A DNA stretch of 39,001 nt from Luteimonas sp. (GCA_037720875.1 JBBJNO010000001.1:7912-46912); one strand, 5' to 3'; counted from the first letter of the stretch, positions 3 to 38,881 are shown. Notes: a model not told the origin generated them from the sequence alone. Made by a program: numbers and translations.

Positions 3-506
3 TTGCGTTTGAAGAAACGGGTGATAGTGGACGTCATCGTGCTGGCCGGCCTGTACACGATCCGCATCATTGCCGGTTCGGTACTGGTGGCGGCCGCGTT
101 CTCGTTCTGGCTGCTGGCGTTTGCGATGTTCCTGTTCCTGAGCCTGGCAATGCTCAAGCGCTATACCGAATTGCTGTCCCTCCTCGACCAGGGCAAGGAC
201 AAGACCAGCGGCCGCGGTTACGACGTCGAGGACCGGCACCTGGTGCAATCGATGGGCACGGCAAGCGGCTACCAGGCGGTGCTGGTGCTGGCCCTGTACA
301 TCAACAGCACGGCCAGCGAACTGCTGTACCGCCGCCCGCAGGTGCTCTGGCTGCTGTGTCCACTGCTGCTGTACTGGATCAGCCGGGTGTGGATGATTGC
401 CCACCGCGGCCTGATGCGGGACGACCCGGTGGTGTTCGCGGTCACCGACCGCGCCAGCCAGGTCATCGTGCTGATCTGCGCACTCGTCGTGGCAGGCGCG
501 ATCTGA
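3..506 (+). CDS. UbiA-superfamily polyprenyl-phosphate phosphoribosyltransferase (Rv3806c-like), 5' end outside the window
   Basis: The frame is open to the window edge. The C-terminal region is hydrophobic and multi-helical (VLAGLYTIRIIAGS, FWLLAFAMFLFLSLAMLKRY, GYQAVLVLALYINS). Its stop overlaps the start of a clear DprE1 homolog by 1 nt (TGATG, 504-508). The family call rests partly on this context. Confidence 0.6.
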   Translation: MRLKKRVIVDVIVLAGLYTIRIIAGSVLVAAAFSFWLLAFAMFLFLSLAMLKRYTELLSLLDQGKDKTSGRGYDVEDRHLVQSMGTASGYQAVLVLALYINSTASELLYRRPQVLWLLCPLLLYWISRVWMIAHRGLMRDDPVVFAVTDRASQVIVLICALVVAGAI

Positions 507-1810
507 TGGCGGCAGGTCAGTCGTGGGGACGTTATCCCCAAGCAGAACAACGGCTGCTCACGCCTGCCCGTGCCGATCAGCCGATCGATGCCGGGGGCGA
601 CCGCTGGCTGCCCTATGGCAACGGACGCAGCTATGGCGACAGCTGCCTCAACGACGGCGGCACGCTGGTGCACACGCGGCGCCTGGATCATTACCTGGCC
701 TTCGATCCGGCCACCGGCCTGCTGCGCTGCGAATCGGGTGTGCAGCTGGCCGACATTCTCGCGCTGGTCGTGCCGCAGGGCTGGTTCCTGCCGGTGTCGC
801 CCGGCACCAAATACGTCACCGTGGGCGGCGCCATCGCCAACGACGTGCATGGCAAGAACCACCACCAGGCCGGTACCTTCGGCGAACACGTGCACTCCTT
901 GGAATTGCTGCGCAGCGATGGCGGACTCGGTTCCTGTAGCCGCCAGCACAATGCGGAACTGTTCACCGCGACCATCGGCGGCCTCGGCCTGACCGGCCTG
1001 ATCACTTCGGCGGAGATCGCACTGCGGCAGATTCCCGGCCCGTGGCTCGCCACCGAGAGTTGCAAGTTCGGCAACCTCGAAGAATTCTTTGCGTTGTCGG
1101 CCCAATCCGACCAGGCCAATGAATACACGGTGGCCTGGATCGATTGCACCGCGCGCGGCGCGGCGCTGGGCCGTGGCCTGTTCGCGCGCGGCAATCACGC
1201 CGCACCAGTAGTGACGCCGCGCGCACCCGCGCGCACCCGACTTGGCATGCCGTTCACGCCGCCGCTGTCCTTGGTCAACTCGTTGAGCCTGCGCGCGTTC
1301 AACACGCTTTACTGGCACCGGCAATGGCGTCAGCGTCGGGCGTCGGTCAGCCACTACGAACCGTTCTTCTATCCACTGGACGCGCTGGCCAACTGGAACC
1401 GCATGTACGGCCCGAAGGGCTTCCTGCAGTACCAATGCGTGGTGCCGCCCATTGGCGCGGCCGAGACGACTGCCGAACTTTTGCGACGCATCCAGGCCAG
1501 TGGCGCGGGGTCGTTCCTGGCCGTGCTCAAGCAGTTTGGCGATCGCCCGCCCGCAGGTCTGCTGTCGTTTCCGCGGGCAGGCACGACGCTGGCGCTGGAT
1601 TTCCCGATCGACCGGGCCGGCAGCGTCTTCAAGCTGCTCGACGGCCTGGACGACGTGGTGGCCGACGCCGGCGGCGCGGTCTACCCGGCCAAGGATGCGC
1701 GCATGTCGGGTCGGCGTTTCCGGCAATATTTCCCGGCCTGGGAGCAATTCCAGGCCTTCATCGACCCGCAGGTCTCGTCGAGTTTCTGGCGACGCGTCAT
1801 GGAATCCTGA
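506..1810 (+). CDS. dprE1: FAD-dependent decaprenylphospho-beta-D-ribofuranose 2'-oxidase homolog (DprE1-like)
   Basis: ORF 356..1810 trimmed to the ATG at residue 51 (506). Motifs GRSYGD, VTVGGAIANDVHGKNHH, GGLGLTG, FYPLDALANWNRMYGPKGFLQYQCVVP, LSFP....LDFP and YPAKDAR are colinear with M. tuberculosis DprE1 (Rv3790) as I recall its sequence. Confidence 0.9.
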   Translation: MAAGQSWGRYPQAEQRLLTPARADQPIDAGGDRWLPYGNGRSYGDSCLNDGGTLVHTRRLDHYLAFDPATGLLRCESGVQLADILALVVPQGWFLPVSPGTKYVTVGGAIANDVHGKNHHQAGTFGEHVHSLELLRSDGGLGSCSRQHNAELFTATIGGLGLTGLITSAEIALRQIPGPWLATESCKFGNLEEFFALSAQSDQANEYTVAWIDCTARGAALGRGLFARGNHAAPVVTPRAPARTRLGMPFTPPLSLVNSLSLRAFNTLYWHRQWRQRRASVSHYEPFFYPLDALANWNRMYGPKGFLQYQCVVPPIGAAETTAELLRRIQASGAGSFLAVLKQFGDRPPAGLLSFPRAGTTLALDFPIDRAGSVFKLLDGLDDVVADAGGAVYPAKDARMSGRRFRQYFPAWEQFQAFIDPQVSSSFWRRVMES

Positions 1811-1814
1811 GCAA

Positions 1815-2552
1815 ATGCAGAACGTGCTGATCATCGGAGCCACCTCGGCCATCGCCGAAGCCTGCGCGCGCAGGTATGCCGCCGCCGGCGCCGCCTTGTA
1901 CCTGACCGGTCGCGACGCCGCCCGGCTGCAGCTCATCGCCGCCGACCTGAGGGTGCGCGGCGCGCGCGCCGTGCATACCGATCTACTCGATGTCGTCGAC
2001 GACGCCCGACAGGAACAGGTAGTCGCAGCGGCCTGGCAGGCGCTCGAACGGGTGGACGTGGTGCTGGTCGCTCACGGCACCCTGCCCGACCAGGCCCGGT
2101 GCGAAACGTCCCCGGAATACGCGGTGGCCGAATTCAACCTCAACGCCACCGCCACCATCGCCCTGCTGACCCGGCTGGCACCGCGCATGGCGGCGCAGCG
2201 GCAGGGCAGCATTGCGGTGATCTCCTCGGTGGCGGGCGATCGCGGGCGCGCCAGCAATTACCTGTACGGCAGCGCCAAGGCCGCGGTCAGCGCGTTCCTG
2301 AGCGGACTGCGACAGCGGCTGTCGCGCGAAGGCGTCAACGTGCTGACCATCAAGCCAGGCTTCGTGGACACGCCGATGACCAGCCAGTTCCAGAAAGGGC
2401 CGCTGTGGGCCAGTCCGGACCAGGTGGCGGCCGGCATCCTGCGCGCCGTGGACAGGCGCCGGAGCGTGGCTTACCTGCCGTGGTTCTGGGCGGGAATCAT
2501 GCTGGTGATCAAGCACATCCCCGAATTCGTGTTCCGCAGGATCAGGCTGTGA
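1815..2552 (+). CDS. dprE2: Short-chain dehydrogenase, decaprenylphospho-2'-keto-ribofuranose reductase homolog (DprE2-like)
   Basis: ORF 1452..2552 trimmed to the ATG at residue 122 (1815), 4 nt after the dprE1 stop. It has an SDR N-terminus (IIGATSAIAEA), a catalytic YGSAK, and the C-terminal tail LPWFWAGIMLVIKHIPEFVFRRI, which matches the Rv3791 tail pattern. Confidence 0.85.
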   Translation: MQNVLIIGATSAIAEACARRYAAAGAALYLTGRDAARLQLIAADLRVRGARAVHTDLLDVVDDARQEQVVAAAWQALERVDVVLVAHGTLPDQARCETSPEYAVAEFNLNATATIALLTRLAPRMAAQRQGSIAVISSVAGDRGRASNYLYGSAKAAVSAFLSGLRQRLSREGVNVLTIKPGFVDTPMTSQFQKGPLWASPDQVAAGILRAVDRRRSVAYLPWFWAGIMLVIKHIPEFVFRRIRL

Positions 2553-3502: not shown

Positions 3503-3506
3503 CCCC

Positions 3507-5871: not shown

Positions 5872-5884
5872 CGCGCCTCACTTG

Positions 5885-8245
5885 TCACGGAACAATGGTC
5901 ACTGGGAACTTGAATTCGGGACACAACTGCAGCTTTCCCGCATTGTTCATTCCCAGACCCAAGGCGTACTTGCCCCCGAATTCCGAGATGTCGCCCAAGG
6001 TGGTGAATCCCGACCCGCTCATCCTTGGGTTCTTGAAATATTTGCCTACGTCCGGACGCATGGCGAGCTGGGTGTTCAGATAATGGTGAACGCCTTTGGC
6101 ATCCGTCAGCACAACATAAACGGCATCCGCGAGCGATCCATTTTCGATCGAGCCGATCAGCCATCCCTCGACCCGGAGGGGGTCTGAAGTTGAAATGCTG
6201 ATCGCAGCGGGAAGCGCGTGGCCCAGCGCATCGATCGCGCCGGTGCATTTTTCCAGAGTCTGCGCATCTTGCGACGACAATGCTGCGTCAAAGTGATGGC
6301 GTTTGTTCAAACCCGGTATCTCAGGCACAGGTATCACCGGAACCTGGCTGAAGGCAAGCGAGTAAGTCCGGTTCCAGTCAAGGCTGTGCTCGGCGGCAGA
6401 AATCGATAGCGACTTGACTCGCTTCCAGTCCCTCAGGGGTTTTTCCGCATATAGCCGTGAAAACTCTTCCGCGTTTTCTATCAAGGGCGATATCACGAAC
6501 CCTGTTCTTGTCATCCCGGAAATGATGCGGTAGCGTCTTTGCTCGCCATTGCTCATCTCAAGACTGATCTGCAGCTGGGTTGGCTTGTACAGAACGCTTG
6601 CCATGAGTCCGGCTACGCTGGGCTTGATATCGATTTGTACGAATATTGGTCCGGTAGATGCGGGCAGCTCCACCTTTTCCCCAAAAGCATGATCCGCGCT
6701 TCCGAGTTTAATGGGCAGCGCTCGCGCACCTTCCTGTTGCCTCTTGCGCAGAACCAGAAATCCATTCTCAATCCGTTTAGGTTCGTACCCTGTGAGCAAC
6801 ATAGGCCAGCTGGCACCGTCATCCATGGATGGAAACCTCCAGTCAATCGGCTGCACCTTGAAGAAAATATTGTCAGGAGCCCGCTCAGACAACAAATGTT
6901 CACTGTTGGCCGTAGCCAGACCGGGTGTATACGCGGCATAACTCTGGAAAGCCGGGCGTGGAGACCAAGTGTTGCCGGAGGCAATGAGGAACGATTGATC
7001 GAACGAGTAGATATCAGAAGTGCCTTGCAAGAGGGACAGTGGCGACTGCGCTCGAAGAGATGCCAGTGAAGCATCGAATCGCCGCTTCAGCAGGGTTTCG
7101 TCCCTATACCGGCTCTTGAAACCATCCCACGCAGCCGCATAGGTGGACACTAGATTCTTGCCGAATCGATCGATGGAAGTCCTGATGAACTGCGCATCGA
7201 TCAGCGCCCACGAAAACACTGCGACGGCAATCGCAGGAAACGTGAAGTTGCTCGTGATCAAGGCAGGCAACAACAACGCTGCGAGAAGGATCGCCGTACC
7301 GGCAGTCACTGCGTGGCCGTCGTGGCGAACGAATCCCGCCTTGAATGAAACAAACAGGAACAGCGAAAAACCCAGTCCGAGAAACAGTCTTGCTGCCACG
7401 CTGCTTCTGGCTTTGCTAAAAAAAATTGCAACCAAGATCAAAACGCAGGCAGCAAGATACGCGATCACTTGGCCGAACATGCCCTCGGTGGCCATCGCCT
7501 CGGTGTAGCCAGCACTGCTCTGCGCCATGCGAATGACGTACTGGGGCAGCAGCGCAAGAGGTTGCCCCGCCAACAACCAGGACAACATCATGGCCGCTAC
7601 AGGAGAGGCCAAGCTGACAAGAGCGAGAGCGCGATGTTTTTTCAGCATCAAAAACAAGAAACACAAGGCAGCTGTTGCCGCGGCCAGGATCAGAGCCGAT
7701 CCTTTTATCAAGGGCAGGAATCCGAGTGGCGCAAAAGCAATGGCCACGTGCAAGGAGGCCCACCGGCTTGGGGCTCGAGATCCCTCTTCGGCGGAAACAA
7801 GATTGAAAATGACGATGTCGGCGAGCACGGCAAACGAAAGCAGCAACGGGTCGCGGAACATCAGCCCCGCATACAGTGCCCACAAGACGAGCATCCACCA
7901 TCGTTTGGCGTTGACCAGTACCAGGGCCAAAATTACAACGTAAGACAGAGCCAGGTAAATGCTGCCCGCCATCATCCGCAAATCCGTGCTCGGGTGATAC
8001 AGCTTCGTGTAGATCGAAGCGTATGGGCCTGAAGTGAAATTGATATCGCTCCCGAACGAGAGGCCTTGCGCGACGGCTTGATTCAGGCCCATCTGCCAGG
8101 ACGGATCTAGATTTCCAGCCGGCATTTCCGGGGTAAACGGCACAAAAATCGCCACGGCCGTAAGCAGCAGCAAGAGCCAGATACCGGCATCGAATATTTT
8201 ACCGAGCCTGTCCAAGCTGGCGCTCTTGTATGGATGTATTTGCAT
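5885..8245 (-). CDS. Large polytopic membrane protein with a C-terminal soluble domain; candidate GT-C-fold glycosyltransferase
   Basis: ORF 5885..8425 trimmed to ATG 8245 (MQIHPYKS...). The first roughly 430 aa contain at least 10 hydrophobic segments, with an acidic first loop (PEMPAGNLDPSWQMG). These are followed by roughly 350 aa of soluble, beta-rich sequence. I cannot name the family from sequence alone. Confidence 0.55.
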   Translation of the reverse strand: MQIHPYKSASLDRLGKIFDAGIWLLLLLTAVAIFVPFTPEMPAGNLDPSWQMGLNQAVAQGLSFGSDINFTSGPYASIYTKLYHPSTDLRMMAGSIYLALSYVVILALVLVNAKRWWMLVLWALYAGLMFRDPLLLSFAVLADIVIFNLVSAEEGSRAPSRWASLHVAIAFAPLGFLPLIKGSALILAAATAALCFLFLMLKKHRALALVSLASPVAAMMLSWLLAGQPLALLPQYVIRMAQSSAGYTEAMATEGMFGQVIAYLAACVLILVAIFFSKARSSVAARLFLGLGFSLFLFVSFKAGFVRHDGHAVTAGTAILLAALLLPALITSNFTFPAIAVAVFSWALIDAQFIRTSIDRFGKNLVSTYAAAWDGFKSRYRDETLLKRRFDASLASLRAQSPLSLLQGTSDIYSFDQSFLIASGNTWSPRPAFQSYAAYTPGLATANSEHLLSERAPDNIFFKVQPIDWRFPSMDDGASWPMLLTGYEPKRIENGFLVLRKRQQEGARALPIKLGSADHAFGEKVELPASTGPIFVQIDIKPSVAGLMASVLYKPTQLQISLEMSNGEQRRYRIISGMTRTGFVISPLIENAEEFSRLYAEKPLRDWKRVKSLSISAAEHSLDWNRTYSLAFSQVPVIPVPEIPGLNKRHHFDAALSSQDAQTLEKCTGAIDALGHALPAAISISTSDPLRVEGWLIGSIENGSLADAVYVVLTDAKGVHHYLNTQLAMRPDVGKYFKNPRMSGSGFTTLGDISEFGGKYALGLGMNNAGKLQLCPEFKFPVTIVP

Positions 8246-8884: not shown

Positions 8885-9283
8885 ATGCGTACCGTCATCT
8901 TCTATTCGCTGTTTGCCGGCATCGCGATGTTGATCAATCTCGCCACTCAAGCGACCGTGGTGCATTGGTATGCAGGGGCGTACGCCATACCGCTGTCGGT
9001 GCTCGCAGGTACGATTTCCGGTGTTTCTGTCAAATACGTACTGGACAAGAACTACATTTTTCGCAAGTCGTATTCGCGCATTGACCGGCATATCCGCTCC
9101 GCCTCTCTCTACCTGGTTGCCAGCGTGGCCACCACATTGATTTTCTGGGGGGTCGAAGCGGCATTCCATTTTGCCTTCGGGTCCGCGGAGATGCGTTATC
9201 TGGGCGGTGCAATCGGCTTGACCCTGGGTTACATCCTCAAATTCCATCTCGACAAGAAGTTTGCGTTTGGAGGGGATAGCTAG
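8885..9283 (+). CDS. gtrA: GtrA-family small membrane protein (second copy)
   Basis: It is 132 aa with four hydrophobic helices. It carries the family signatures KYVLDKNYIFRK and KFHLDKKFAFG. Confidence 0.8.
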   Translation: MRTVIFYSLFAGIAMLINLATQATVVHWYAGAYAIPLSVLAGTISGVSVKYVLDKNYIFRKSYSRIDRHIRSASLYLVASVATTLIFWGVEAAFHFAFGSAEMRYLGGAIGLTLGYILKFHLDKKFAFGGDS

Positions 9284-9356
9284 AATCGTTGGCCGTGCCG
9301 CTGCGAACCGCCTGACCAACGCGAGCAACGATGGCCACCGCCTCTGGCTTCACCTG

Positions 9357-9388
9357 AAAAGGCCGGCCCTGTGCGCAGGCCCGGTCTT
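9357..9388. terminator. Stem-loop between convergent genes, a likely bidirectional intrinsic terminator
   Basis: AAGGCCGG-C-CCTG-tgcg-CAGG-C-CCGGTCTT spans 9359-9388. It forms 8+4 bp with one G-U pair and one C/C mismatch. On the minus strand it is followed by UUUU (9357-9360). It lies 36 nt past the 9426 stop and 75 nt past the 9283 stop. Confidence 0.45.
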
Positions 9389-9425
9389 AGGGCTTCGAAG
9401 ACCCAGCTCTCCGGCGAGGCCAGTT

Positions 9426-11270
9426 TTATTTTACCGAGACAAGCACCCAGTCCGTATCGGGGTTGCCGTTGTTGTCGATCACGATCGTCAACTTGGCATT
9501 TCCATCCACATCAATCACGGCGGTCTGTGGCGCATTGGTCGTTACCACCGCTGCATGCAGCACAGCATCCCCGGAGATGATCCGGGCACTGACGTTGCCT
9601 GCGCCGCGCCTGATCGCATCCTCGGGAATATTTGGAGCCATGCTGATGGTCACGGCGGCCGTCTCTTGCCCGCTGGCCTTTGCAAATTTGTTCAAGTCGA
9701 ATGCGAAACGGGTGGGTGTGGTCAAGCCCGGATGTACGAACAACGACAAGCCCTGCGCGTGCACTGTGCCGAATTGGTCGCCGGCCTCGATTTCCCCGAC
9801 ATAGCTCATGAGGTCCCTGAGCGGCTCGCTATTCGAAACCCTGTCGAGCACGTCCTCCCTGGCAATCACCAGGAAGGAGTAATCGCCGCCTGCCTTCGCC
9901 GTCTTGTCGAAGACCTTGATGACAACGTAGTCCTTGGCGAATGCAGGGCTCGGCTGTGACGTGCTTTGCATGATGACGATCTCCGGCTCATACCGGGCGA
10001 CCACATCGCCTTCCTCATATTTACGATTGAGGAAGGAGCAGTCGATCACGTGCCGCCGGGAGTAGTAGGCCGGGTTGCCCCAGCAGGTCAGTACCCGGAA
10101 GTCTCTTGGTGTGTTGGCCGCCACCCATCGCCCGGCTTCCGCACGATCGTATTCCTGATGGGCGTTGTAGGTTTTGTACAGTTTGGTCAATGCACGTTCG
10201 CGGGGAATTCCGAAGAAGAAGATCGACAGCAAGACTAGCGCGGGAACGCCGATACTCAAGGCAGGCGCAAACCGGCCGGCTCGCGCGCCAACCAGCCCGG
10301 ACACTGCCTGCATGCCCATGGCTGCAAGCGCGAACAGGGCAAATACTGCTGGCATGGCATACCAGTTGTAGGGCTCGAAGGGATACTTGAGCGTGTAAGC
10401 GAGCACGTGCGCGGCCAGACTTGCGCACAGGAAGATGAGCAGTGGCAGACGCCTGCGACACAACAACAGGCAGGCGGCGACTGCGAGGCCTGCGGACCAG
10501 AGGTGATTCCCCAAAAAGACCGTCTTGCCGAACCACGTCCAGTCAATGACCCGGGGATGGTTTTGCTGATGCAAAATCTTGGTCAAAAATGAGTTGGGGA
10601 CAGGCGCACCGAAATAGACCCATGCAAACCCATACCAGGCCAATGCTATTGCGGCGGCAACGATGACCGCCCTGACCGGGAACCTGCCCTCCCGCAGCCA
10701 ATGCGCCGCAAGCAACAGGCCGCCGACGGGGACAAGATCGAGCTTGTTGACTATCAACAGCCCTGCGACGACACCGACCATCCACGCGCGTGGTGTGCCC
10801 AGCAGTGACCAGACAGCCAGCGCAAGCAATAGAAACGTCAGCGGAGTCTCGAGGCCCGCGCCCACGAAATACATTGTTTCCGTGTCGAAAGCCGACAGCG
10901 CGACAAAGCTCAGTCCGGCCACAAGACCCACCCTGCGCGCCAACACCAATGCCGTCAGCGAAAGAGCGATGGCGCTCATGCCGATCCCGGCACCGACCAG
11001 TGCCGACACTGGCGATACGCCGAACTTCATCACCAGTGCGATGACTAGAGGATGGAGCGGAGCGCTCGCGCCCCACACCGGCGCCTCGCCTGGATTCCAC
11101 ACCCAGAACTCGCCCTGGAGCATGTTTTCCGCATAACGCAGGAAAAAAGCCGCGTCATCCGCGATTTCCATGCCCACCTGCGCGCGCATGGCAAACACGT
11201 AGAGGATGACTGCCAGGATGAAAAAAAACAGCCTGTGCAATGGGCTTTCCATGTTGAAATACTTACTCAT
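9426..11270 (-). CDS. GT-C-fold membrane glycosyltransferase (ArnT/Emb/Aft-like) with a C-terminal beta-sandwich domain
   Basis: ORF trimmed to ATG 11270, with GGAG..GGGG upstream. There are roughly 11 hydrophobic segments. The first-loop motif is EIADDAAFFLRYAENMLQGEFWVWNPGEAPVWGASAPLH, a DD motif typical of GT-C enzymes. A C-terminal stretch of about 200 aa is soluble and ends in KLTIVIDNNGNPDTDWVLVSVK. Confidence 0.7.
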   Translation of the reverse strand: MSKYFNMESPLHRLFFFILAVILYVFAMRAQVGMEIADDAAFFLRYAENMLQGEFWVWNPGEAPVWGASAPLHPLVIALVMKFGVSPVSALVGAGIGMSAIALSLTALVLARRVGLVAGLSFVALSAFDTETMYFVGAGLETPLTFLLLALAVWSLLGTPRAWMVGVVAGLLIVNKLDLVPVGGLLLAAHWLREGRFPVRAVIVAAAIALAWYGFAWVYFGAPVPNSFLTKILHQQNHPRVIDWTWFGKTVFLGNHLWSAGLAVAACLLLCRRRLPLLIFLCASLAAHVLAYTLKYPFEPYNWYAMPAVFALFALAAMGMQAVSGLVGARAGRFAPALSIGVPALVLLSIFFFGIPRERALTKLYKTYNAHQEYDRAEAGRWVAANTPRDFRVLTCWGNPAYYSRRHVIDCSFLNRKYEEGDVVARYEPEIVIMQSTSQPSPAFAKDYVVIKVFDKTAKAGGDYSFLVIAREDVLDRVSNSEPLRDLMSYVGEIEAGDQFGTVHAQGLSLFVHPGLTTPTRFAFDLNKFAKASGQETAAVTISMAPNIPEDAIRRGAGNVSARIISGDAVLHAAVVTTNAPQTAVIDVDGNAKLTIVIDNNGNPDTDWVLVSVK

Positions 11271-11384: not shown

Positions 11385-13736
11385 TCATCTGGTAATGCCC
11401 CTGACATTTGTCAGAAACGAGCGCAACCCCTGTTGCGCCACCACAAACGGAAGCAATCGTTCCAACGCGTGCAGCATCGAACCATCGTAGGGGAGTGGTT
11501 CGACCGGATAGTCAGCCCAGTCAAGGCTGAGGTCGAACAAGGGTTGGAGCGCTTCGACACGGGCCCAGAACATCGTGCCCACCGGGAATTCGAATTGCTC
11601 CGGCAGATCTTCCGGCAAGTCCAACTTGCGGCATAGCGCTACTGCCGCAGTCCGGTTGCGGCCCCAGTCGAGCAGATTGGGTTCATCGGGAAAAATCATG
11701 CCGATGGAAGGATCCGCCGCCATTCGACCGACGATGATGTCGACCATGCTGGCTTCGCCGCCGAGCAGGTTCTCGAACAGGAATGTTCGCCAGGCCTTGC
11801 TCATGACCACGTCAGCGACATCCGCTGTCTTTTTGGTATGTAGATGCCCGACGATATCGTAATCGCGGGTGAGCCTGGGCCCGAACGCGGTCAGCAACGG
11901 GCCGATGTCGCGTCCGCGGTTGGGCACCACTTCAACAACCGTCCTGCCGCCATACTCATGCAACATGCTGCGTACCCGATCCCCGACCAACCCGGTCGGC
12001 ACGCTGACAAACAGATCCGGCTGCAGCCGATTGCGGCCCAGACGCTCGAGCATCTCAGGCAGCAGTTCGGGGTAATAGACGTGAAGATGCAGCGCAACAC
12101 GTAACCCGGCGGGCAGCGCACCCGGCACCTCCTCCGAGGTGATGACATCGTGTAGCCAGGGCCCGGCTGGGCAACCGGCACGCAGGTAATCGAGCACCGG
12201 ATCGGTACCGGCTCCCTCGGCCCGCAGGGCGTCATAGATGCCCGGATGGAATCCCGGAAACGGCTTGCGGCGATCAAAGCCAGCTGTCCAGGGGCGCACG
12301 TATTTCCACCGAATGAGTTCCACCGGATTCTCATGCGCCTGCGTGGAAGACAGGAAGTCCAGGCGGGAGACCGCCGAACGATGAATGTCTTTGGCAATCT
12401 GCAGCTCTTGATCCGCTTGGGCGCCCGCCGCCAGCGCAAGCACCTCCAGCGATCGGATGTAACGACCCATGTCGAAATAATCGTGGGCAATCGGCTCCAG
12501 ATCGCGCCCCACCTTTTCCCGCAATTCCGCCGAGCGCGCAAATTCGATTACGCGCGCGGCCATCGCGGCGGTATCGAGGTAAGGCACGACGCATTCCCGG
12601 GCCATGCCATGTTCGGCGAGGACATCGGCGATGCCGGTCGTGCGGTCGAAACAGATCACCGGCAAGCGATGCGACATCGCCTCGATGGCCACGCCGGGTA
12701 GCGGGTCCAGACGGGAGGTCAGCAGCAGCATGTCCGACAGGTTGTAGACCTCCTCGACCAGTGGGGTGTTGTCCATGAAATGCACATGGTGTTGCAGGCC
12801 TGCGCGCTGTATCTGGTCGGCGAGGAAAAAGGAGTATTCCCCGCCGTGCCCAGGGTCGCCGATCCACACAAAACGGACGGGAACTTCGGGTGCCGACTGA
12901 ACCACCCTGGTGACGCAATCGATAAAAAGTTCAACGCCTTTGCGGATTTGCACCGCGCCGATACCGATAACGACCAAGGTGTCTTGCGGTAGCGACGGTG
13001 GGCGCAAGACCGCGCGGATTCTGCTCATTTCTGTCGCAAACGTGTCTGCGTCGATCTCATCGACGAGCAATGTGCAGCGTCCCTGAGGCAAGAACTGGCA
13101 GGTCCTGCCCCGCAACTGCGGATATTGCGTCACGACGTCCTGGTAGGTCAGCTGGGTCGAGAACACCACTTCGCTCGCCCAGAAAAACGCGGTCTTGAAA
13201 GCGGACCTGGGACGGGTATAAGACGCAAACTCGTGAATCATCGTCACCGCCGGGATCGATGCGCGGGCCAGGGGCTCGAGTACCAATGCCGATTCGATGC
13301 TGTTGACGATGGCGAACTTGAAGTCGTGCATTTGCACCAGCTGTGCCACGGTCTCGTTGATCAGGCACGCGTTGTGCCTTGGCACGACCGGCCCCACCAC
13401 TTGCACGCAGGCTTCCCGGAACGCCTCGACCAACGGGCCGCCGCCCAAGAGCAAAGACACGACGTTGTATTTTTCCTGCAAACCCCGCACCAGATTCAGG
13501 CTCAAGATCGGCGCGCCGGTCATCGAGGCCTCGTGGCTCACCACCAGGATCGTGTCCCGCGTGCGATCGAACGGCACCTGCCCATTGATCGCGTTGACCG
13601 TCGGCTTGGCACCCAGCCTGCCCTCGTTGCGACCGAACTGGATGAAATGCTCATAGGGGTCCATGCCGGATGGACCGATATCGGGGTAATGTCGGAGGTA
13701 GAACTCCTTGTCGAAATCCGGGGCGCTTTCGCTCAT
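11385..13736 (-). CDS. Bifunctional glycosyltransferase: N-terminal GT4 (GT1-family) plus C-terminal rhamnan-synthesis-protein-F (RgpF) domain; paralog 1
   Basis: The GT4 motif is [27 protein letters not shown]. The RgpF-type motifs are [52 protein letters not shown] and [15 protein letters not shown]. The start overlaps the upstream stop (ATGA at 13733-13736). Confidence 0.85.
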
Positions 13737-15286
13737 TGCGCCGAGTTCCCTCGGTCATCGATTGTCAGCCACCGCAATGGCGCCGACCAGCGCCAGCTTC
13801 GTGATTGCTGCAGCCCCTCAAGCGATTCCGAAAGCGCCTGGCGCTCGTCTTCGCGCAGCTTCACCAATGCTTCCAGTTCCCGCGCCCGCCTCTCAAACAC
13901 CGCAATCTGACCTTTCGCTGCATCCAGTTCGACAGCCATTGCCTTCGCTTGCTGCTTGTGCTCCAACACTCGCTCCTGTTGAAGCGTCAACCCGTGATCG
14001 CTTTCCTGAATCTGTCGGCTCAACTGCTCGGCAGTGGAGGCATGGATCTTTAACTGCGTATTAACTGCTGCCAACTGCGAATTGACCGCCGCAAGCTCAT
14101 CCTGATGGGCTGCCGATTGTTCCTCGGCCCGGGACACATACGCCTTGAACTGGGCATCGATCGACGCCAACTCCTCCTGACTGGCGGCGGATTGCGCCTG
14201 TGCCTCGGTAATGGTTGCCTGCTGCGTCGAGATGTGCCGTTGCAGGTCCTGGATGTCGCGCGCCACAAGTCTTGACTCGGCGACATGGGCGCGGGCGTTC
14301 TGGTCAGCGGCCAGCAACTGCGCCGCAGCCTCTGCAAGATCCGCCTTGCGATCGGCGACTTGTCCATTGAGCAATTTGATCTGCTCTTCGCGGTCGGCGA
14401 TTTCCTGCATCAGGTGCTCAAGGTGTCCGGTCTGGATTTTGGCAAACGCGTCGGCTTTGCCAAGTTGCAGGTTCGCATCGGCAATCTGCGTTTGGGCAGC
14501 ATCAAGCTGCAACTTCAGCTGCCGTTGCAGCGCGCGGTGCGCGACGAGTTCGGCTTCACGGGCTTGCGGCTGGCCGTTGACTACGTCGTCATACGAGAGG
14601 GTCTCGACGCGGGCGGCAGCGCATTCGAACAGCCGCAGCGCCAATGCTTCCTCGTCGGCGTCCATCTGTGACAGGGCGAGCACGCTGTCCGGTAGCACCC
14701 GACCCACCAGCAGGACGCCAAGACCATGCGAATGATGGAATTCGAACGACGGATACCGCTTTGCCATTTCGGACCACAGCTTCCAGACGCCAAACTCCCG
14801 TTCGCGAACCATGGTGTCGTGGAAGAGGACGACGCCGCGCTCCGAAAGCTTGGGCAACCAGGTCTCCAGGTCGTGCCGAACCGCTTCGTAGGTATGCAAT
14901 CCATCGATATGCAGCAAGTCGATGCTGCCGTCGGCGAAGTAAGAGAGTGCGTCGTCGAATGTCATGCGCATGAGCTGTGAGAAGCTCGCGTACAGGTTGT
15001 CATGCGTGGCGCGCAAGGTGTCGTAGATCTCGTCGTCGTAGGCGCCGGCGTGCTCATCGCCTTGCCATGTGTCCACCGCAAAACACTTGCTGGGCAAATC
15101 GTTTTCGCGCACGGCCTGACAAAAAGCCAGGTACGACGTGCCGGTGTGGGTGCCCAGTTCCACCAGCACCATGGGTTTGAGTTCTTCAACGATCCAGCCT
15201 GCAAACGGGATATGCCCGATCCACGCGCTGGGGGGCACATTCAGCGGCTTCATGAACATGCTGGTGTTGAGTTTGAACGCGCTCAT
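13733..15286 (-). CDS. SAM-dependent methyltransferase (Methyltransf_24/CmcI-like) fused to a coiled coil of about 250 aa; WbdD-like O-antigen chain terminator/ruler candidate
   Basis: The N-terminal motifs are [12 protein letters not shown] and [15 protein letters not shown]...VVLFHD. Residues from about 241 to 494 are Q/A/E/L-rich heptad-like sequence with no Pro or Gly clusters. The C-terminal motif is [13 protein letters not shown]. It is ATGA-coupled to wzt upstream and to the GT4+RgpF gene downstream. Confidence 0.8.
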
Positions 15287-16710
15287 GGTGTCCTCGTTGT
15301 GAGACTTGTTTCGGTGTCGTCCGTAGCATTCGAATCATCAACCACGGCCTGCAGGCTGATCGCGCGCATCGAAACGCCGACCAGACCGGTCGACACGCTG
15401 GTCGCATGCGACTCTAGGACGATTGCGTCGTGGATCCATTCGGCCTGTTGGTGCTCCAGCTGCGTACCGTAGGCGATGGAGACGTCGAAGGAATATTGCC
15501 CCTTGGGGAGGATGGGCATCCTGAATTCAAAGCAGGCTTTGAGGCATTGGCCCGCGGCGATCGCGACCGGCGAATCCGCGTAGGCCAGATAGGTGTTGTC
15601 GCCGATCAGATGCTGGCCCAGCCGGTCCTTCAGGAAGAAACCGACGATCGCGCTGTGCAAAACCGAGTTGGTCCTGCCGTTCACTTCCAGCCGGACGATT
15701 TCCCCCCCGACGATCCACGAGATGGGATGCCTCAGGGCATCGGTGAGCCGGGCCGAGGTAACGTGCGCCGAACCATCGCCAAAGCCCGATCGATTCGGAT
15801 CGAAGCGGAATACTTCGATGTCGTTGCGTAGATGCGAGCGCGCAATCAGCGCCGCGCGCGGATCGGTGATGGCATCCTCGTCGGTGGCGTCAGACGCTAC
15901 GGCCGGCTGCATGGGCAGCGAATACGCGGCCGACGCGTGATACGCCTCGGACACATCCTTGGCGGTCCCCTGCATCGCCAAGTTCCCGTGCTCGAGCATG
16001 AGCGCGCTGTCGCACAGGTTTACCACCGCCGCGGCGTCGTGACTCACGAACAGGACGGTGCCTGTCTCCTGGAACTTGCGCAGGAAGCGCATGCATTTCT
16101 GCCCGAAGAACACATCGCCGACCGACAGCGCCTCGTCGATGACGAGGATGTCCGCGTCGGCATGGGCGATCACCGCGAACGCCAGCCGCACGAACATGCC
16201 GCTGGAATAGGTCTTCACCGGCTGGGCGACGAAATCGCCGATGTCGGCAAATGCAACGATGTCGTCATAGCGGGCGTCGATCTGCCGGCGCGTGAGGCCC
16301 AGCACCGCGCCGCTCATGTAGATGTTTTCGCGGCCGGTGAACTCAGGATTGAAGCCGCTGCCCAGTTCCAACAGCGCGGCGACACGGCCGTTGACTTCGA
16401 CGCTGCCCGACGTGGGCGTGAGGGTGCCGCAGATGATCTGCAGCAGCGTCGACTTGCCCGAGCCGTTGCGACCGATCACTCCCAGGGTTTCCCCCTTGCC
16501 GACATCGAATGACACATCGCGCAACGCCCAGAAGTCGCGGTAATAGGCGCCGGCCGGCTTGCCCACCATGCGTTGCATGCGGGGCAGCAGGGCCTGCTTG
16601 AGCCGGTCTTCCGGGCGGGCGTAGACCTGGTAACACTTCGACAGTCCGCGGACGCGGATGGCCGGTGGGGGCCGATGCGGGTCCAGCGTGGTGCCGGCTT
16701 CAGGTGACAT
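15283..16710 (-). CDS. wzt: O-antigen ABC exporter ATP-binding protein Wzt with a C-terminal glycan-binding (Wzt_C-type) domain
   Basis: It has Walker [10 protein letters not shown], signature YSSGM and Walker B ILVIDE. It also carries an extra domain of about 180 aa after the NBD. I chose the start at ATG 16710 (MSPEAG..., AAGG upstream). GTG 16767 is an alternative start. Confidence 0.9.
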
Positions 16711-16821
16711 CGGCAAAGCCTTTGCAAACGGCTGGTGACGCAGCTGGTCCGCACGCCCGCGCTTCACCTGTCACCGCACCGGTCTTCCATATGGAAGGTG
16801 TGCAAGGGACGTCCAAGGGCC

Positions 16822-19188
16822 TCATCGCGTGAGTCCCGTGACATTGGTCAGCACGCATCGACGCCCCTGCTGCTCGGCCACGAAGGGAATCAGCCGCTCC
16901 AGTGCGTGCAGCATCGATCCATCATAGGGAAGCGGCTCGGCCGGATAGTCGGACCAGTCCAGCTCGAGGGCGAACAGGGGCCGCAGCGCTTCGACCCGCG
17001 CCCAGAACATCATTCCGACCGGAAACACGAAGTGTTCCGGGAGATCTTCGGGAAGGCCCAGCCTGGCCGACAGCGTTTCTGCGAATGGCCTGTTGTTGCG
17101 CCAGCCGATGAAATTCGGATCATCGGGGAACACCAGTCCGATGGACGGATCATTGGCCATGCGTCCCACGATGAGGTCGACCATGGCGGACTTGCTGCCC
17201 AGCATGTTTTCCACCAGAAAGGTCCTCCACCGATCGATCATCGCGGTATCGGCGACATCCATCGTCTTCTTGGTATGCACGTGCCCGACGATGTCGTAAT
17301 CGCGGAGCAGTTGCGGGCCGAACGCCGTCAGCAGCGGTCCGATGTCGCGGCCCCGATTGGGCACCACCCTGATCTCGCTCTTGCCGGCATACCCCTGCAA
17401 CAACGCCTGCGCAGTCTCCATGACGCTGGTGGAAGGGACGCTGAGCAGCAGGTCGGGAAGCAGCCGATTCAGGCCCAGGCGTATCAGGATTTCCGGCAGG
17501 AACTCCGGATAGTAGGCATGCACATGCAGTGCGACGCGCGCATTTTCGGGGATGGGAAGGGCGCCATCCTCGGAGGCAATGACCTCGTGGTGCCACGGAC
17601 CGTCGGGGAGGCCGGCGCGCAGGTAATGGGTCATCGGCTCGGGCTGGGTGCCCTGCGGCTGAAGTTCGTCGTAGATCCCGGGATGGAATCCCGGAAACGG
17701 CTTGACATGGTCAAAGCCCGCCGTCCACGGGCGGACATATTTCCAGCGGATGACCTCGACATCGTCGCCGGGGTACTGGGCAGGCGCCAGGAAGTCGCGT
17801 CGGGCCAGGGCAGTGTCGTGGATCTCCGCGGCGATTGCCTGCTCCCGGCGCACGTTCTCCACCGCGCCCAGTGCGAGCGTATCCAGCGCCTGGATATAGC
17901 GCTCCATGTTGAAGTAGTCGTCCGCAATCGCCTTGAGCTCCAGACCGACGCGTTGCCGCAGCGGCGCGGACTGGGCGAACGCCATCACCTGGCGCGCCAT
18001 GGCATGGGTATCGAGATACGGCACGACACATTCCTCGGCCAGGCCGTGTTCCGACAGCACGTCGGCGATTCCCGTCGTCCGGTCGAAACAGACCACGGGC
18101 AATGCATGGGACATCGCCTCGATGGCCACGCCCGGCAATGGATCCAGGCGGGAGGTCAGCAGGAACATGTCCGCCAGCTCGTAGACCTCCTCGATCAAGA
18201 AGGTGTGACTCATGAAGTGCAGGTGGTCCTGCAGGCCCAGGCGCTGCACCTGGTCGGCCAGGTACACCGAGTACCCGAGGTCATATTCCGGGTCGTAACC
18301 GGGGCCCACCCAGACAAAGCGGCAGGGTCTGTCGCCCATGGCTTGCACCACCCTGGCGGCGCAGTCGATAAAAAGTTCAACGCCTTTGCGCATTTGCACG
18401 AAGCCAATGCCAATGATCACCAAGGCATCCTCGGCAAGTCCTGCGGGCCGCAATGCCGCGCGGATCCGGGTGGTTTCCTGTTCCACACTGGCCGCATCGG
18501 CTTGCTCGGCGAGCAAGACGCAGCGTCCCTGCGGAATGAATCTGCACTCCCTCCCGGACAGTTGCGGATATTCGGCCACCACATTGTCATAGGTCAGGCG
18601 GGTGGAAAACACCACTTCGTCGGACCAGAAGAACGCGTTGAGAAAATTCCATCTGGGCCGGGTGTAGGCCGCGAATTCGTGGATCAGCACGACACTGGGG
18701 ATCGAGCGTTTGGCCAGGGTTTCCAGCACCCCCGAGGTTTCGACGCTGTTGGCAATCGCGAATTTGATCTGGTGGCGCTCTGCAATCCCGGCCACCGTGT
18801 ATTGCACCGCATTGATGGCCGGAATCAACTGGACCATGGACACGCAGGCCGCCTGGAAGGCCTCCATCAATGGCCCGCCGCCGAGCAACAGGACCACGAC
18901 GTTGTATCTCTGCTGAAACCCGCGCACGAGGTTGAGACTGAGGATGGGCGCGCCCGACAACGACGCCTCGTGGCTGACGATCAGGATCGTGTCCTTCTGG
19001 CGGTCGAAGGCGATCCCGCCCTTGATGATCTCGAACAACGGGGGGGCTTCCAACGTGGCGCCGGACTGGTTGCCGGGAGCATGTCCGGCTGACAATGATT
19101 CCCCGGGAACGACCGTCGCATCCTCGGGAATCGCATTCTCGCCGCGTAGTGGCATCGTGTCAGGACAAGCAGCGGGGCCTCGCGTCAT
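16822..19188 (-). CDS. Bifunctional GT4 + RgpF-domain glycosyltransferase; paralog 2
   Basis: It is colinear with the 11385..13736 product over about 720 aa, and by eye the majority of positions are identical. It shares the motifs [48 protein letters not shown] and [12 protein letters not shown]. The N-terminal ~60 aa are unrelated. The start is ATG 19188 or TTG 19194. Confidence 0.85.
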   Translation of the reverse strand: MTRGPAACPDTMPLRGENAIPEDATVVPGESLSAGHAPGNQSGATLEAPPLFEIIKGGIAFDRQKDTILIVSHEASLSGAPILSLNLVRGFQQRYNVVVLLLGGGPLMEAFQAACVSMVQLIPAINAVQYTVAGIAERHQIKFAIANSVETSGVLETLAKRSIPSVVLIHEFAAYTRPRWNFLNAFFWSDEVVFSTRLTYDNVVAEYPQLSGRECRFIPQGRCVLLAEQADAASVEQETTRIRAALRPAGLAEDALVIIGIGFVQMRKGVELFIDCAARVVQAMGDRPCRFVWVGPGYDPEYDLGYSVYLADQVQRLGLQDHLHFMSHTFLIEEVYELADMFLLTSRLDPLPGVAIEAMSHALPVVCFDRTTGIADVLSEHGLAEECVVPYLDTHAMARQVMAFAQSAPLRQRVGLELKAIADDYFNMERYIQALDTLALGAVENVRREQAIAAEIHDTALARRDFLAPAQYPGDDVEVIRWKYVRPWTAGFDHVKPFPGFHPGIYDELQPQGTQPEPMTHYLRAGLPDGPWHHEVIASEDGALPIPENARVALHVHAYYPEFLPEILIRLGLNRLLPDLLLSVPSTSVMETAQALLQGYAGKSEIRVVPNRGRDIGPLLTAFGPQLLRDYDIVGHVHTKKTMDVADTAMIDRWRTFLVENMLGSKSAMVDLIVGRMANDPSIGLVFPDDPNFIGWRNNRPFAETLSARLGLPEDLPEHFVFPVGMMFWARVEALRPLFALELDWSDYPAEPLPYDGSMLHALERLIPFVAEQQGRRCVLTNVTGLTR

Positions 19189-19242
19189 CTTCAATCATCT
19201 CGGAAATGTTTGCGGAAAGATTCCGGCCCAGGTCTCTGGGTC

Positions 19243-19270
19243 GGCAATGGCAATGGCAATGGCAATGGCA
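19243..19270. repeat. Hexanucleotide tandem repeat (GGCAAT)x4.7, which reads ATTGCC on the transcribed minus strand
   Basis: Read directly from the sequence: ggcaat ggcaat ggcaat ggcaat ggca. It sits at the centre of the 123-bp wzm-to-glycosyltransferase intergenic region (19195-19317). Confidence 0.95.
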
Positions 19271-19317
19271 GGTCGACAAAGCATGCGCGGCACCTTCACC
19301 GAGCCGGCCGGGATCTC

Positions 19318-20187
19318 TCAAAGCACGTCGGCAAAGCCCCGTCGCGTTCTCTGGAACCACCAGAAGCCGGCCCATGCGGTCAGCAATCCCGCCGCAAGAT
19401 AGATTGCAAAGACACCCCAGTCCGGATTACGTCCCCAGATGACTGCACCACGCGTCTGCTCGATGGCGATCGTAAGCGGATTGACTTGAATCAGGCCCCT
19501 GTATTTCTCCGGCATCGCCGACAGCGGATAGAACACCGGGGACAGGAATAGCAGCGCCGTCGTAAGAATGCCGGTGATCTGTCCAACGTCGCGCAGGAAC
19601 ACGCCGAGCGAGGCCAGGAACCAGGCAATCCCGAGCGCGAAGGCCGCGATGGGCAGGATCAAGACGGGGGCAAGCAGCACGTGCGGGTGCAGCGCGCCAG
19701 TGGTGGCCAGCACCGCGGCCAGCAACACCAGCATGCTGGTGGCGGCGTGGAACAGTGCTGATCCCAGGGCGATGGCAGGCAGTATCTCAAGCGGGAATAC
19801 CACCTTTTTCACGTAATTCACATTGGCAATGATCAGGCCGGGGGCGCGGTTGACGCACTCGGCGAACAGGGAATGGACGATCATCCCCACGAACAGGACG
19901 ACCGCAAAATCGACATTGCTTTCGTTGCCTGCGGTCTCCCATCGCGCCTTGAAGATCACCCGGAACACGAAGGTATAGATCACCAGCATCAGCAGCGGGT
20001 TCAGGAATGACCACGCCAGCCCCATGACCGACCCTTTATAACGCCCCACCACTTCGCGTCGCGTCATCTGGCCGATCAGGTTGCGATGACGCCACAGGCT
20101 GCGCGCCATCTGCAACGCTGAGGCCGGCATCCTGTAAGTCGCGTCATTCAATATGGTCGACCGCGGATCGTTCCTGCCTCCGGCCAT
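19318..20187 (-). CDS. wzm: O-antigen ABC exporter permease (ABC-2 type) Wzm
   Basis: The sequence is RNLIGQMTRREVVGRYKGSVMGLAWSFLNPLLMLVIYTFVF followed by 6 TM segments, which is typical of Wzm/TagG/KpsM permeases. ATG 20187 shares 1 nt with the metB stop. GTG 20190 is an alternative start. Confidence 0.9.
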   Translation of the reverse strand: MAGGRNDPRSTILNDATYRMPASALQMARSLWRHRNLIGQMTRREVVGRYKGSVMGLAWSFLNPLLMLVIYTFVFRVIFKARWETAGNESNVDFAVVLFVGMIVHSLFAECVNRAPGLIIANVNYVKKVVFPLEILPAIALGSALFHAATSMLVLLAAVLATTGALHPHVLLAPVLILPIAAFALGIAWFLASLGVFLRDVGQITGILTTALLFLSPVFYPLSAMPEKYRGLIQVNPLTIAIEQTRGAVIWGRNPDWGVFAIYLAAGLLTAWAGFWWFQRTRRGFADVL

Positions 20188-24108: not shown

Positions 24109-24272
24109 GTGCTGCGACCAGCGCTTAAACGCAATTTTTTGTGCTTCAAGGGCTTTACGATGGCCGATTGCTATCGGCCTTTTCGGGACGGTCATCTTGC
24201 CAGCTACACCTCCGCCGCGCGTCGATCCATCGCGAGCAATCTCCAACGTCGACCGTGAGCCGGTGCAATCCC

Positions 24273-36995: not shown

Positions 36996-38877
<1,882 letters not shown>

Positions 38878-38881
<4 letters not shown>

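Follow-up and report, generated by a model that had tools for sequence, protein, structure and literature searches.

A GT-C-fold membrane protein family proposed to transfer a lipid-linked pentofuranose in an O-antigen locus of Luteimonas sp.

We analysed a 39,001-nt stretch of Luteimonas sp. DNA (GCA_037720875.1, JBBJNO010000001.1:7912-46912), referred to as the window, and studied in particular its region 8885-11270, which contains a GtrA-family gene (gtrA2) and the gene of a 614-aa membrane protein with the glycosyltransferase C (GT-C) fold. The DNA comes from a soil metagenome, and the window sequence was found solely in soil-metagenome DNA runs. The nearest related modules belong to Xanthomonadaceae-like metagenome-assembled genomes (MAGs). 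Judged by its gene content, the window is an ABC-transporter-dependent O-antigen locus, and the 614-aa gene is the last one in its minus-strand wzm-wzt-RgpF operon. The features of the studied region are listed below (AF2 stands for AlphaFold2, TM for transmembrane).

8885..9283, plus strand: gtrA2, 132 aa, four-helix GtrA family (NF037976 gtrA_1, 4.7e-45; PF04138, 1.8e-6)
9359..9388, no strand assigned: GC-rich hairpin (8-bp and 4-bp stem; dG -21.4 kcal/mol on the plus strand)
9426..11270, minus strand: predicted 614-aa GT-C-fold glycosyltransferase, last gene of the minus-strand O-antigen operon (AF2 model and Foldseek)
10176..11270, minus strand: membrane domain, residues 1 to ~365, 11 TM helices, N-terminus inside and C-terminus in the periplasm (AF2 helices and hydropathy)
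11052..11168, minus strand: first periplasmic loop motif, residues 35-73 (16 invariant positions in 36 homologues)
9831..10112, minus strand: periplasmic alpha/beta subdomain, residues ~387-480 (alignment A1 and AF2 secondary structure)
9429..9812, minus strand: C-terminal beta-sandwich, 'type A', residues ~487-614, ending VDNNG.PDTDW (AF2, all-beta; Foldseek)

The start codon of the 614-aa gene was set to the ATG at 11270, which fits the N-termini of the homologues and is preceded by GGAG/AGGGG as the ribosome-binding site; the TTG-extended version of the open reading frame (ORF) reaches 11336. The first-pass annotation, made from the sequence of the window, had placed here a membrane protein of 615 aa. 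Its coordinates were retained, whereas the length was corrected to 614 aa plus the stop codon.

Searches with the single sequence yielded no Pfam, NCBIfam or PDB sequence match, and neither did the search of the PDB with a 36-sequence profile; Musashi and taurine dioxygenase, which appeared among the PDB sequences with E ~1, were discarded as chance matches. In total 152 homologues were found in a set of 5.8 billion proteins. Nearly all of them are labelled 'hypothetical', and a few are named GT87 or RgtA-D-like. Alignment A1 was constructed from 36 homologues with 36-56% identity and contains 57 invariant columns. The profile of the family reaches 203, 2,618 and 11,072 clusters (50% identity) at E <= 1e-30, 1e-10 and 1e-3, respectively. 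Ten distant family members had no Pfam match save one weak match to GT87.

The structure of the 614-aa protein was modelled with AF2 on the 36-sequence alignment (pLDDT 89.7, pTM 0.85), and the model was compared with the PDB using Foldseek. All top 20 matches (E up to 2.8e-3) belong to GT-C enzymes, with ALG12 (8e-8), ArnT (1e-7), AftB (1.6e-6), EmbA/B (8e-6) and AftA (1.5e-5) among them, and with ALG9, PglB, AglB and STT3 as further GT-C matches. E-values of the 19 matches with E <= 1e-3 range from 8e-8 to 5e-4, and their query-normalised TM-scores, from 0.39 to 0.51. The GT-C fold supposed in the first-pass annotation was thus borne out by the structure search, together with an invariant pair of aspartates in the first periplasmic loop.

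All even-numbered loops of the protein hold clusters of Arg and Lys (ARR, GTPR, REGR, CRRR, GARAGR), which by the positive-inside rule places the N-terminus in the cytoplasm. In this topology all invariant polar residues, namely D38, D39, E141, K176, D178, N226, K231, Q235, H288, E299 and Y301, face the periplasm. The most conserved stretch of the family is the loop motif EIADDAAFFLRYAENMLQGEFWVWNPGEAPVWGASAPLH (residues 35-73), whose consensus in the 36 homologues is ADDGAFFLRYAENM..GEFWVWN.GE.PVWGASAP. Its invariant positions (36 sequences) are D38, D39, F42, F43, Y46, A47, N49 and G53, followed by W56, N59, P64, W66, G67, S69, A70 and P71. The motif DD...F.RYA, noticed earlier from the sequence, is present as quoted, and both its aspartates are invariant in the 36 homologues. 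The D38-D39 pair (nt 11154-11159) lies seven residues past the first TM helix, where the first juxtamembrane helix (H38-51) begins, and we propose that it may serve as the catalytic or donor-binding acidic pair. Given the fold matches, the topology and the periplasm-facing invariant residues, the GT-C assignment and the reading of this loop as catalytic are well supported.

The soluble C-terminal region, described on the first pass as about 200 aa long, is present; it is closer to 230 aa and consists of two pieces. The first, the alpha/beta subdomain, sits in the structural alignment where the periplasmic domain of ArnT sits. It occurs in every family member, including the 480-490-aa forms of Acidobacteriota and Actinomycetota, and the invariant positions of A1 listed for it are E373, D375, R376, G380, W382, R406, D410, L414, N415, P429, Y448, R471 and D473. 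The second piece is the terminal beta-sandwich. The protein ends with ...AKLTIVIDNNGNPDTDWVLVSVK, and the strands that had been likened to carbohydrate-binding modules (CBMs) are its last 23 residues. For residues 487-614 the Foldseek match to the CBM51 structure 2vmg was moderate (E 3.6e-3, TM-score 0.53); the other beta-sandwich matches (7t7y, 7js4 and F-type lectins, E from 5e-3 to 5e-2) include a family 8 CBM. Matches of the CBM type rank directly after the GT-C ones in the Foldseek list. No Pfam CBM match was obtained for this module. The strands are thus modelled as a beta-sandwich whose best fold matches are of the CBM51/NPCBM type, as guessed on the first pass, though the resemblance is weak to moderate. 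We propose, by analogy, that the beta-sandwich may be a module binding the acceptor O-polysaccharide; binding of a rhamnan would be a reasonable analogy with the ORF12 protein of Citrobacter youngae (PMC11127046).

The beta-sandwich is variable in the family: most members carry type A, some lack it, and one protein has both types, type B being an unrelated Cys-containing module that takes the place of type A in members from Burkholderiaceae (carriers compared: P0096, P0100, P0102, P0107, P0117, P0118, P0120 and P0090).

To describe the gene neighbourhoods of the family, we collected loci with relatives of the 614-aa protein from species-representative genomes and from two named homologues, and searched these loci with the window proteins. 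Thirteen other distinct loci, in which the homologue was 39% or more identical, were treated as those of close relatives. UbiA, DprE1 and DprE2 were found together within 10 kb of the homologue in 10 of the 13 (Methylomonas, P. nitroreducens, P. panipatensis, Pseudomonas sp. JAI111, an Enterobacterales genome, Arenimonas, Ancylobacter, Pseudooceanicola, Aliarcobacter and the cyanobacterium Scytolyngbya), while the Noviherbaspirillum locus has UbiA and DprE2. The loci with genes of the family belong to Gamma-, Beta- and Alphaproteobacteria, Campylobacterota and a cyanobacterium. When only loci with at least 5 kb of flanking sequence on both sides were retained (well-flanked loci), DprE1 and DprE2 were present in 8 of the 10 other loci, and RgpF-type genes, also in 8 of the 10.

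The same companions emerged from unbiased all-against-all clustering of the neighbouring ORFs in 14 loci including the window. The most frequent ones were UbiA (12/14), DprE1 (11/14), DprE2 (11/14) and GT4+RgpF (10/14). Distant relatives (below 39% identity; Planctomycetota and Chloroflexota) were used as an internal control for donor-gene linkage, and no linkage to the genes of the decaprenylphosphoryl-arabinose (DPA)-type pathway was observed in their 8 loci with at least 5 kb flanks. The linkage in the loci of close relatives ties the 614-aa family to this pathway, and the association with DPA-type donor genes suggested on the first pass is in this respect confirmed in other genomes.

A GalE-like short-chain dehydrogenase/reductase (SDR) of ~311 aa (TIGR01179, 7e-45, under the cutoff) lies beside the genes of the family in 9 of the 13 other loci (L001, 11845-12831; L006, 6748-7680; L008, 3112-4047; and six more) and is absent from the window. 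It may be a pentose epimerase of the type of C. youngae ORF13 or an ordinary nucleotide-sugar epimerase. A GtrB-like donor synthase was considered as a conserved partner of the family, and the neighbour clustering led us to reject it. Locus L130 of B. multivorans, unannotated and with a HAD-UbiA gene but no clear GT-C by Pfam, was left out. A tblastn search of plasmids and phages with the 614-aa protein gave zero matches; none was found in phages for the UbiA fragment of the window, nor in E. coli genomes for Enterobacterales UbiA/DprE1 DNA.

The gtrA2 gene stands at 8885-9283, as annotated earlier and as borne out by the ORF list, the raw sequence and the family matches (152.8 bits with NF037976 at a cutoff of 50; 28.6 bits with PF04138, GtrA_DPMS_TM, at a cutoff of 26.1). 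It is indeed convergent with the 614-aa gene, 142 nt separating the two. We propose that its product is the flippase or escort of a donor with the pentofuranose linked to polyprenyl phosphate. GtrA2-type genes occur near the genes of the family in 5 of the 10 other well-flanked loci and in 7 of the 16 other loci with any flank.

The intergenic hairpin was previously described as common to both genes. The stem exists, but folds no better than shuffled sequences of the same composition: on the plus strand z equals -1.7, with 11 of 200 shuffles folding equally well (57-60% GC DNA), and on the minus strand z equals -0.5 and only UUUU follows. The terminator scan made no call at 9359-9388. A shared bidirectional terminator was therefore rejected as unsupported, and the hairpin is at best a weak terminator of the minus-strand gene.

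The donor genes of the window form an operon at its left edge, and a second GT-C-like gene abuts this operon.

3..506, plus strand: HAD-UbiA polyprenyl-phosphate phosphoribosyltransferase (PPPRS), 3' end, cut by the window edge (NF006088, 3.5e-72)
506..1810, plus strand: DprE1-like FAD oxidase (NF053785, 1.9e-107; PF01565)
1815..2552, plus strand: DprE2-like short-chain reductase (NF053786, 1.6e-55; PRK07102, 5e-101)
2549-3502, plus strand: extended SDR (Pfam/NCBIfam)
3507-4814, plus strand: CrtI/amine-oxidase-like flavoprotein (Pfam/NCBIfam)
4811-5206, plus strand: GtrA1 (Pfam/NCBIfam)
5206-5871, plus strand: S-adenosylmethionine-dependent methyltransferase (Pfam/NCBIfam)
5885..8245, minus strand: second GT-C-like membrane protein with a large beta-rich periplasmic part (AF2, pLDDT 83; Foldseek)

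The HAD-UbiA fragment covers positions 315-479 of the 482 positions of the NF006088 profile, the N-terminal part being outside the window; decaprenyl-phosphate phosphoribosyltransferase models match it at 7e-14. Its stop codon overlaps the ATG of DprE1 at 506. The scores with NF053785 (decaprenylphosphoryl-beta-D-ribose oxidase) and NF053786 are both under the equivalog cutoffs.

The protein encoded at 5885-8245 was overlooked in the first-pass annotation. Translation from the ATG at 8245 gives 786 aa, and translation from the called start, a TTG at 8215, gives 776 aa; we refer to it below as the 776-aa protein. No Pfam or NCBIfam match was found for it; the best Foldseek matches of its model were AglB (6e-5) and ArnT (2e-3), which makes it a second GT-C-like enzyme. 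Its family comprises more than 850 homologues. The operon of P. veronii has the order HAD-UbiA, DprE1, DprE2, 776-type GT-C, SDR, flavoprotein, GtrA, and the extended operon UbiA-DprE1-DprE2-[GT-C]-SDR-flavoprotein-GtrA(-methyltransferase) was also found in B. stagnalis and dozens of metagenome loci. The layout of one Xanthomonadaceae MAG is identical to that of the window, except that the 614-aa gene and GtrA2 are absent. Just upstream of HAD-UbiA, the P. veronii locus (L046) encodes a 609-aa protein (4344-6173, plus strand) with no Pfam or NCBIfam match; tblastn showed no similarity of this protein to the 614-aa family.

For the family of the 776-aa protein, 25 metagenome and genome loci flanked by 5 kb or more on each side were surveyed. 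DprE1 or DprE2 was present in 13 of them, the SDR or the flavoprotein in 15, and both kinds of genes in 12. The 776-aa protein is the conserved partner of the extended donor operon, and the two transferases of the window probably share one pathway. The genes at 2549-5871 travel with this family and not with the 614-aa one: the 776-aa GT-C, its SDR or its flavoprotein occurred in none of the 10 well-flanked loci of the 614-aa family. Conversely, neither the 614-aa family nor GtrA2 was found in any of the 25 loci, so that the window brings two normally separate modules together on one UbiA-DprE1-DprE2 set. GtrA2 is only 21% identical to GtrA1, and by their gene associations each of them goes with its own GT-C.

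The type B module of the 614-aa family and the module at the C-terminus of the 776-aa family (5885 to ~6290, minus strand) are homologous (hhalign probability 98.9%, E 1.3e-17). The presence of this type of module in both families indicates that they exchange periplasmic modules, and module swapping between otherwise unrelated transferases is the behaviour expected of acceptor-binding domains. Homology of the membrane domains of the two families was not established: the hhalign value of 80% for the alignments A1 and A2 is driven by the common type B module.

The upstream part of the operon that ends with the 614-aa gene is as follows.

11385..21380, minus strand: whole upstream part of the operon (Pfam matches)
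11385-13736, minus strand: GT4+RgpF (Pfam)
13733-15286, minus strand: methyltransferase with coiled coil (Pfam)
15283-16767, minus strand: Wzt with C-terminal CBM, PF14524 (Pfam)
16822-19194, minus strand: GT4+RgpF (Pfam)
19318-20190, minus strand: Wzm (Pfam)
20187-21380, minus strand: metB-like gene (Pfam)

In the direction of the minus strand the order is metB-like gene, wzm, GT4+RgpF, wzt, methyltransferase, GT4+RgpF and the 614-aa GT-C. Taken together, the genes at 11385-21380 point to an ABC-transporter-dependent O-polysaccharide pathway. The genes gmd and rmd at 36996-38881 would supply GDP-D-rhamnose, and a double-GT4 protein is also encoded farther along. The two GT4+RgpF paralogues, which are 63% identical over 746 aa, are presumably the enzymes polymerising the rhamnan. 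The methyltransferase at 13733-15286 has a long coiled coil with SMC-like matches over residues 244-496 and adjoins the CBM-bearing Wzt, an arrangement of the WbdD/Wzt type, in which chain termination is coupled to export.

Farther along, the window contains an amino-sugar block with WbqC (24141-24971), a GT2 (24973-25899), two methyltransferases, a hexapeptide acetyltransferase (26528-27172) and DegT (29383-30513). A 318-aa ORF of this block (27182-28138, plus strand) has a weak match, far under the cutoff, to beta-1,2-mannobiose phosphorylase (NF052550, 2.3e-8). The block is adjoined by a third large predicted membrane protein (30952-33282, minus strand; 776 aa), for which there is no Pfam or NCBIfam match and which could be a further periplasmic transferase. 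An Rfam scan at the gathering threshold and a repeat search revealed nothing relevant in the region.

In our opinion, the 614-aa protein is probably a periplasm-facing GT-C that adds a lipid-linked pentofuranose, most likely D-arabinofuranose (Araf), to the O-polysaccharide exported by Wzm/Wzt. Fold, conservation, topology and gene linkage were observed, whereas we infer which donor and which acceptor are used, how the linkage is configured and what the beta-sandwich does. By family membership, HAD-UbiA would convert phosphoribosyl pyrophosphate to polyprenyl-phosphate-linked ribofuranose, and DprE1 with DprE2 would epimerise it at C2 to polyprenyl-phosphate-linked Araf. GtrA2 may move or present this donor at the periplasmic face. 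The 614-aa enzyme would then bind it in a groove formed by the D38/D39 loop and E141, K176/D178, N226/K231, H288 and E299/Y301, to which we ascribe a putative catalytic role, and transfer the sugar onto the exported rhamnan-type O-polysaccharide, held, as in the analogy with ORF12, by the beta-sandwich. In a second branch, another donor, handled by GtrA1 and used by the 776-aa GT-C, would arise from the lipid-linked sugar or from its carrier through the action of the SDR and the flavoprotein, possibly with the methyltransferase; this step could be a further epimerisation or could modify the lipid carrier. With a second GT-C and GtrA1 on the same pathway, the locus would install two different lipid-donated decorations. 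The 614-aa protein had been named the best candidate for using the donor made by the genes at 3-5871. The linkage of its family to UbiA, DprE1 and DprE2 agrees with this, but it is not the sole candidate, as the GT-C at 5885-8245 is the conserved partner of that operon. The 614-aa enzyme together with GtrA2 is best read as a second module tapping the product of DprE1 and DprE2.

Several observations weigh against this assignment. Both by position and by synteny, the donor operon of the window belongs with the 776-aa GT-C, and the access of the 614-aa enzyme to the donor of the window is deduced from the gene neighbourhoods of relatives elsewhere. The P. massiliensis locus (L011) contains a homologue from the 614-aa family and zero DPA genes within 10 kb. 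The GalE-like SDR in 9 of the 13 loci means that the transferred pentose may not always be Araf. The CBM assignment is based on weak fold matches (E ~1e-3 to 1e-2), with none at the sequence level, and the putative function of the whole family has been read from sequence, model and gene context.

The sugar could also be a lipid-linked pentofuranose other than Araf (xylofuranose, Xylf; lyxofuranose, Lyxf; or a methylated pentose), or else the enzyme could be promiscuous like ORF12, which takes two different pentoses (ribofuranose, Ribf, and Xylf). We regard this as doubtful. It would accommodate both the GalE-like SDR of the ORF13 type accompanying the family and the extended SDR, flavoprotein and methyltransferase that the window operon adds to DprE1/E2; on the other hand, this SDR and flavoprotein do not accompany the family elsewhere (0/10 loci), whereas DprE1/E2, whose known product is the arabino epimer, are its constant companions.

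It seems less probable still that the 614-aa GT-C and GtrA2 form a classical Gtr module receiving a hexose or amino sugar on polyprenyl phosphate from a GtrB-like GT2, for example the one at 24973-25899 with the nearby DegT, WbqC and acetyltransferase genes, while the pentofuranose is used by the 776-aa GT-C alone. GtrA proteins serve hexose systems too, the 776-aa GT-C is the conserved partner of the donor operon, and the GT2 with the amino-sugar block at 24-30 kb has no assigned periplasmic transferase; that block, however, could be served by the membrane protein at 30952-33282. Moreover, the conserved neighbours of the family include no GtrB-like GT2: the GT2 present in 6 of the 14 loci is EpsD-like and absent from the window, and the GT2 of the window has a homologue in only 1 of 45 loci. 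In contrast, UbiA, DprE1 and DprE2 are the top co-occurring genes where no other GT-C candidate was detected.

A target other than the O-antigen, that is, a protein (as the pilin of TfpW), lipid A or core (as for ArnT) or an arabinan polymerised by the enzyme itself, is very unlikely: although ArnT is among the best fold matches and TfpW is a Gram-negative 11-TM Araf transferase with a DDX motif needing the same donor genes, no pilin genes lie in the vicinity, the C-terminus forms a beta-sandwich rather than a tetratricopeptide repeat (TPR) domain, and the gene ends a wzm-wzt-RgpF operon, its relatives residing in similar O-antigen clusters.

Extending the assignment of the 614-aa protein as an O-antigen pentofuranosyltransferase, one could suppose a GT-C family outside Pfam, NCBIfam and PDB, maybe separate from GT136, that acts as the O-antigen arabinofuranosyltransferase of many Gram-negative bacteria and has interchangeable acceptor modules, with the present locus harbouring a branched pathway of lipid-linked pentoses in which the second donor, for the 776-aa GT-C, could be the C3 epimer lyxofuranose. 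As a whole this extended version is unlikely. Kelly et al. (2024, PMC11127046) state that no solved glycan is known to contain lyxofuranose.

The proposed function concerns a family labelled 'hypothetical', with ~200 clusters (50% identity) at E <= 1e-30 and thousands at lower stringency, which ranges over soil, plant-associated and aquatic bacteria. One donor pathway may feed two unrelated GT-Cs that swap their C-terminal modules. Such exchange would be a plausible route to diversification of O-antigens (serotypes), which bears on recognition by phages, tailocins and plant immunity. As a constituent of bacterial surface glycans, Araf is known best from mycobacteria, whose Araf pathway is a drug target. 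For Gram-negative bacteria, it was only in 2024 that transferases attaching lipid-donated pentofuranoses to O-antigens were defined for the first time, on the basis of one enzyme.

Among the known systems, the mycobacterial arabinosyltransferases AftB (GT89), AftA (GT85) and EmbA/B/C (GT53) share the GT-C fold with the 614-aa protein (Foldseek, 1.6e-6 to 1.5e-5). They use a polyprenyl-phosphate-Araf donor made by UbiA (Rv3806c), DprE1 and DprE2, with Rv3789 as a GtrA-like partner, and Emb proteins carry C-terminal CBMs. There is no detectable sequence similarity to AftA, AftB or Emb (single sequence or profile against the PDB), and the mycobacterial acceptors are arabinogalactan and lipoarabinomannan rather than O-antigen. 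The 'Emb-like' architecture of the first-pass annotation proved loose. Emb has 15 TM helices and two periplasmic domains, whereas the 614-aa protein has 11 TM helices, one C-terminal module and no Emb Pfam match, and is nearer to ArnT, AftB and ORF12; the fold match to 7bvf covers just a part of Emb (TM-score 0.25 on the target).

ArnT (GT83), the transferase of 4-amino-4-deoxy-L-arabinose (L-Ara4N) from undecaprenyl phosphate to lipid A, is the second-best fold match (E 1e-7, TM-score 0.51-0.57). As in our reading of the 614-aa protein, it has an alpha/beta periplasmic domain past the last TM helix and a pentose donor linked to undecaprenyl phosphate; it differs in having no sequence match, no terminal beta-sandwich, and lipid A as the acceptor. 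TfpW of P. aeruginosa is likewise a Gram-negative protein with 11 TM helices, a periplasmic DDX motif and the UbiA/DprE1/DprE2/GtrA-like gene set. It differs by its C-terminal TPR domain, by the location of its gene beside pilA and by glycosylating pilin. GT87 (PF09594; PimE-type polyprenyl-phosphate-mannose transferases) is the sole Pfam family with a signal, observed in 4 of the 36 relatives (best E 1.5e-5) and in 1 of the 10 distant ones; a few relatives are named 'glycosyltransferase family 87 protein' by NCBI, while the window protein itself has no match at E <= 1.

The closest precedent is found in C. youngae O1/O2, where side chains of alpha-Ribf or alpha-Xylf are added after export (Kelly et al. 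2024, PMC11127046). Experiments in that study showed that O-antigens exported by ABC transporters are modified by three components, a PPPRS, a flippase and a GT-C bearing a CBM at its C-terminus; the GT-C, ORF12, is the founder of CAZy family GT136, its isolated CBM binds the unmodified O-antigen, and the pentose is switched by the SDR ORF13 (Kelly et al. 2024, PMC11127046). The survey in the same study reported DprE1/E2 homologues in Araf systems, SMR- or GtrA-type transporters in some systems and GT-Cs annotated as hypothetical, as well as 'more elaborate' loci in Xanthomonas citri, which contain several epimerases and several GT-Cs (Kelly et al. 2024, PMC11127046). The present locus matches this three-component kind of system for pentofuranose side chains already described in 2024, as it contains HAD-UbiA (3-506), GtrA1 and GtrA2, and a GT-C in an O-polysaccharide locus, along with DprE1 and DprE2 homologues.

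Like ORF12, the 614-aa protein has ~11 TM helices, the GT-C fold, a beta-rich C-terminal module and a place in an ABC-transporter O-antigen locus with gmd/rmd, and both systems have a HAD-UbiA phosphoribosyltransferase for the donor, auxiliary epimerases and a small flippase. The flippase is of the GtrA type here and of the MATE type in the ORF12 system. ORF12 was reported to match EpsG in the Conserved Domain Database, whereas none of the 36 family members matches EpsG (PF14897) at E <= 1. Inspection of A1, an alignment that does not include ORF12, suggests no obvious counterparts, at similar spacing, of the essential ORF12 residues (D31, E34, Y35, H106, R349 and Y350): no DxxEY, no invariant His ~75 residues past the Asp and no RY pair are seen. 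The conserved pattern of the 614-aa family is instead DDxxFFxRY, E141, K176/D178, H288 and E299. Indirectly, comparison with the published description of ORF12 suggests that the 614-aa family may be a sequence family different from GT136, and it may deserve a CAZy family of its own. What is new here is an uncharacterised GT-C family in a recently described kind of system.

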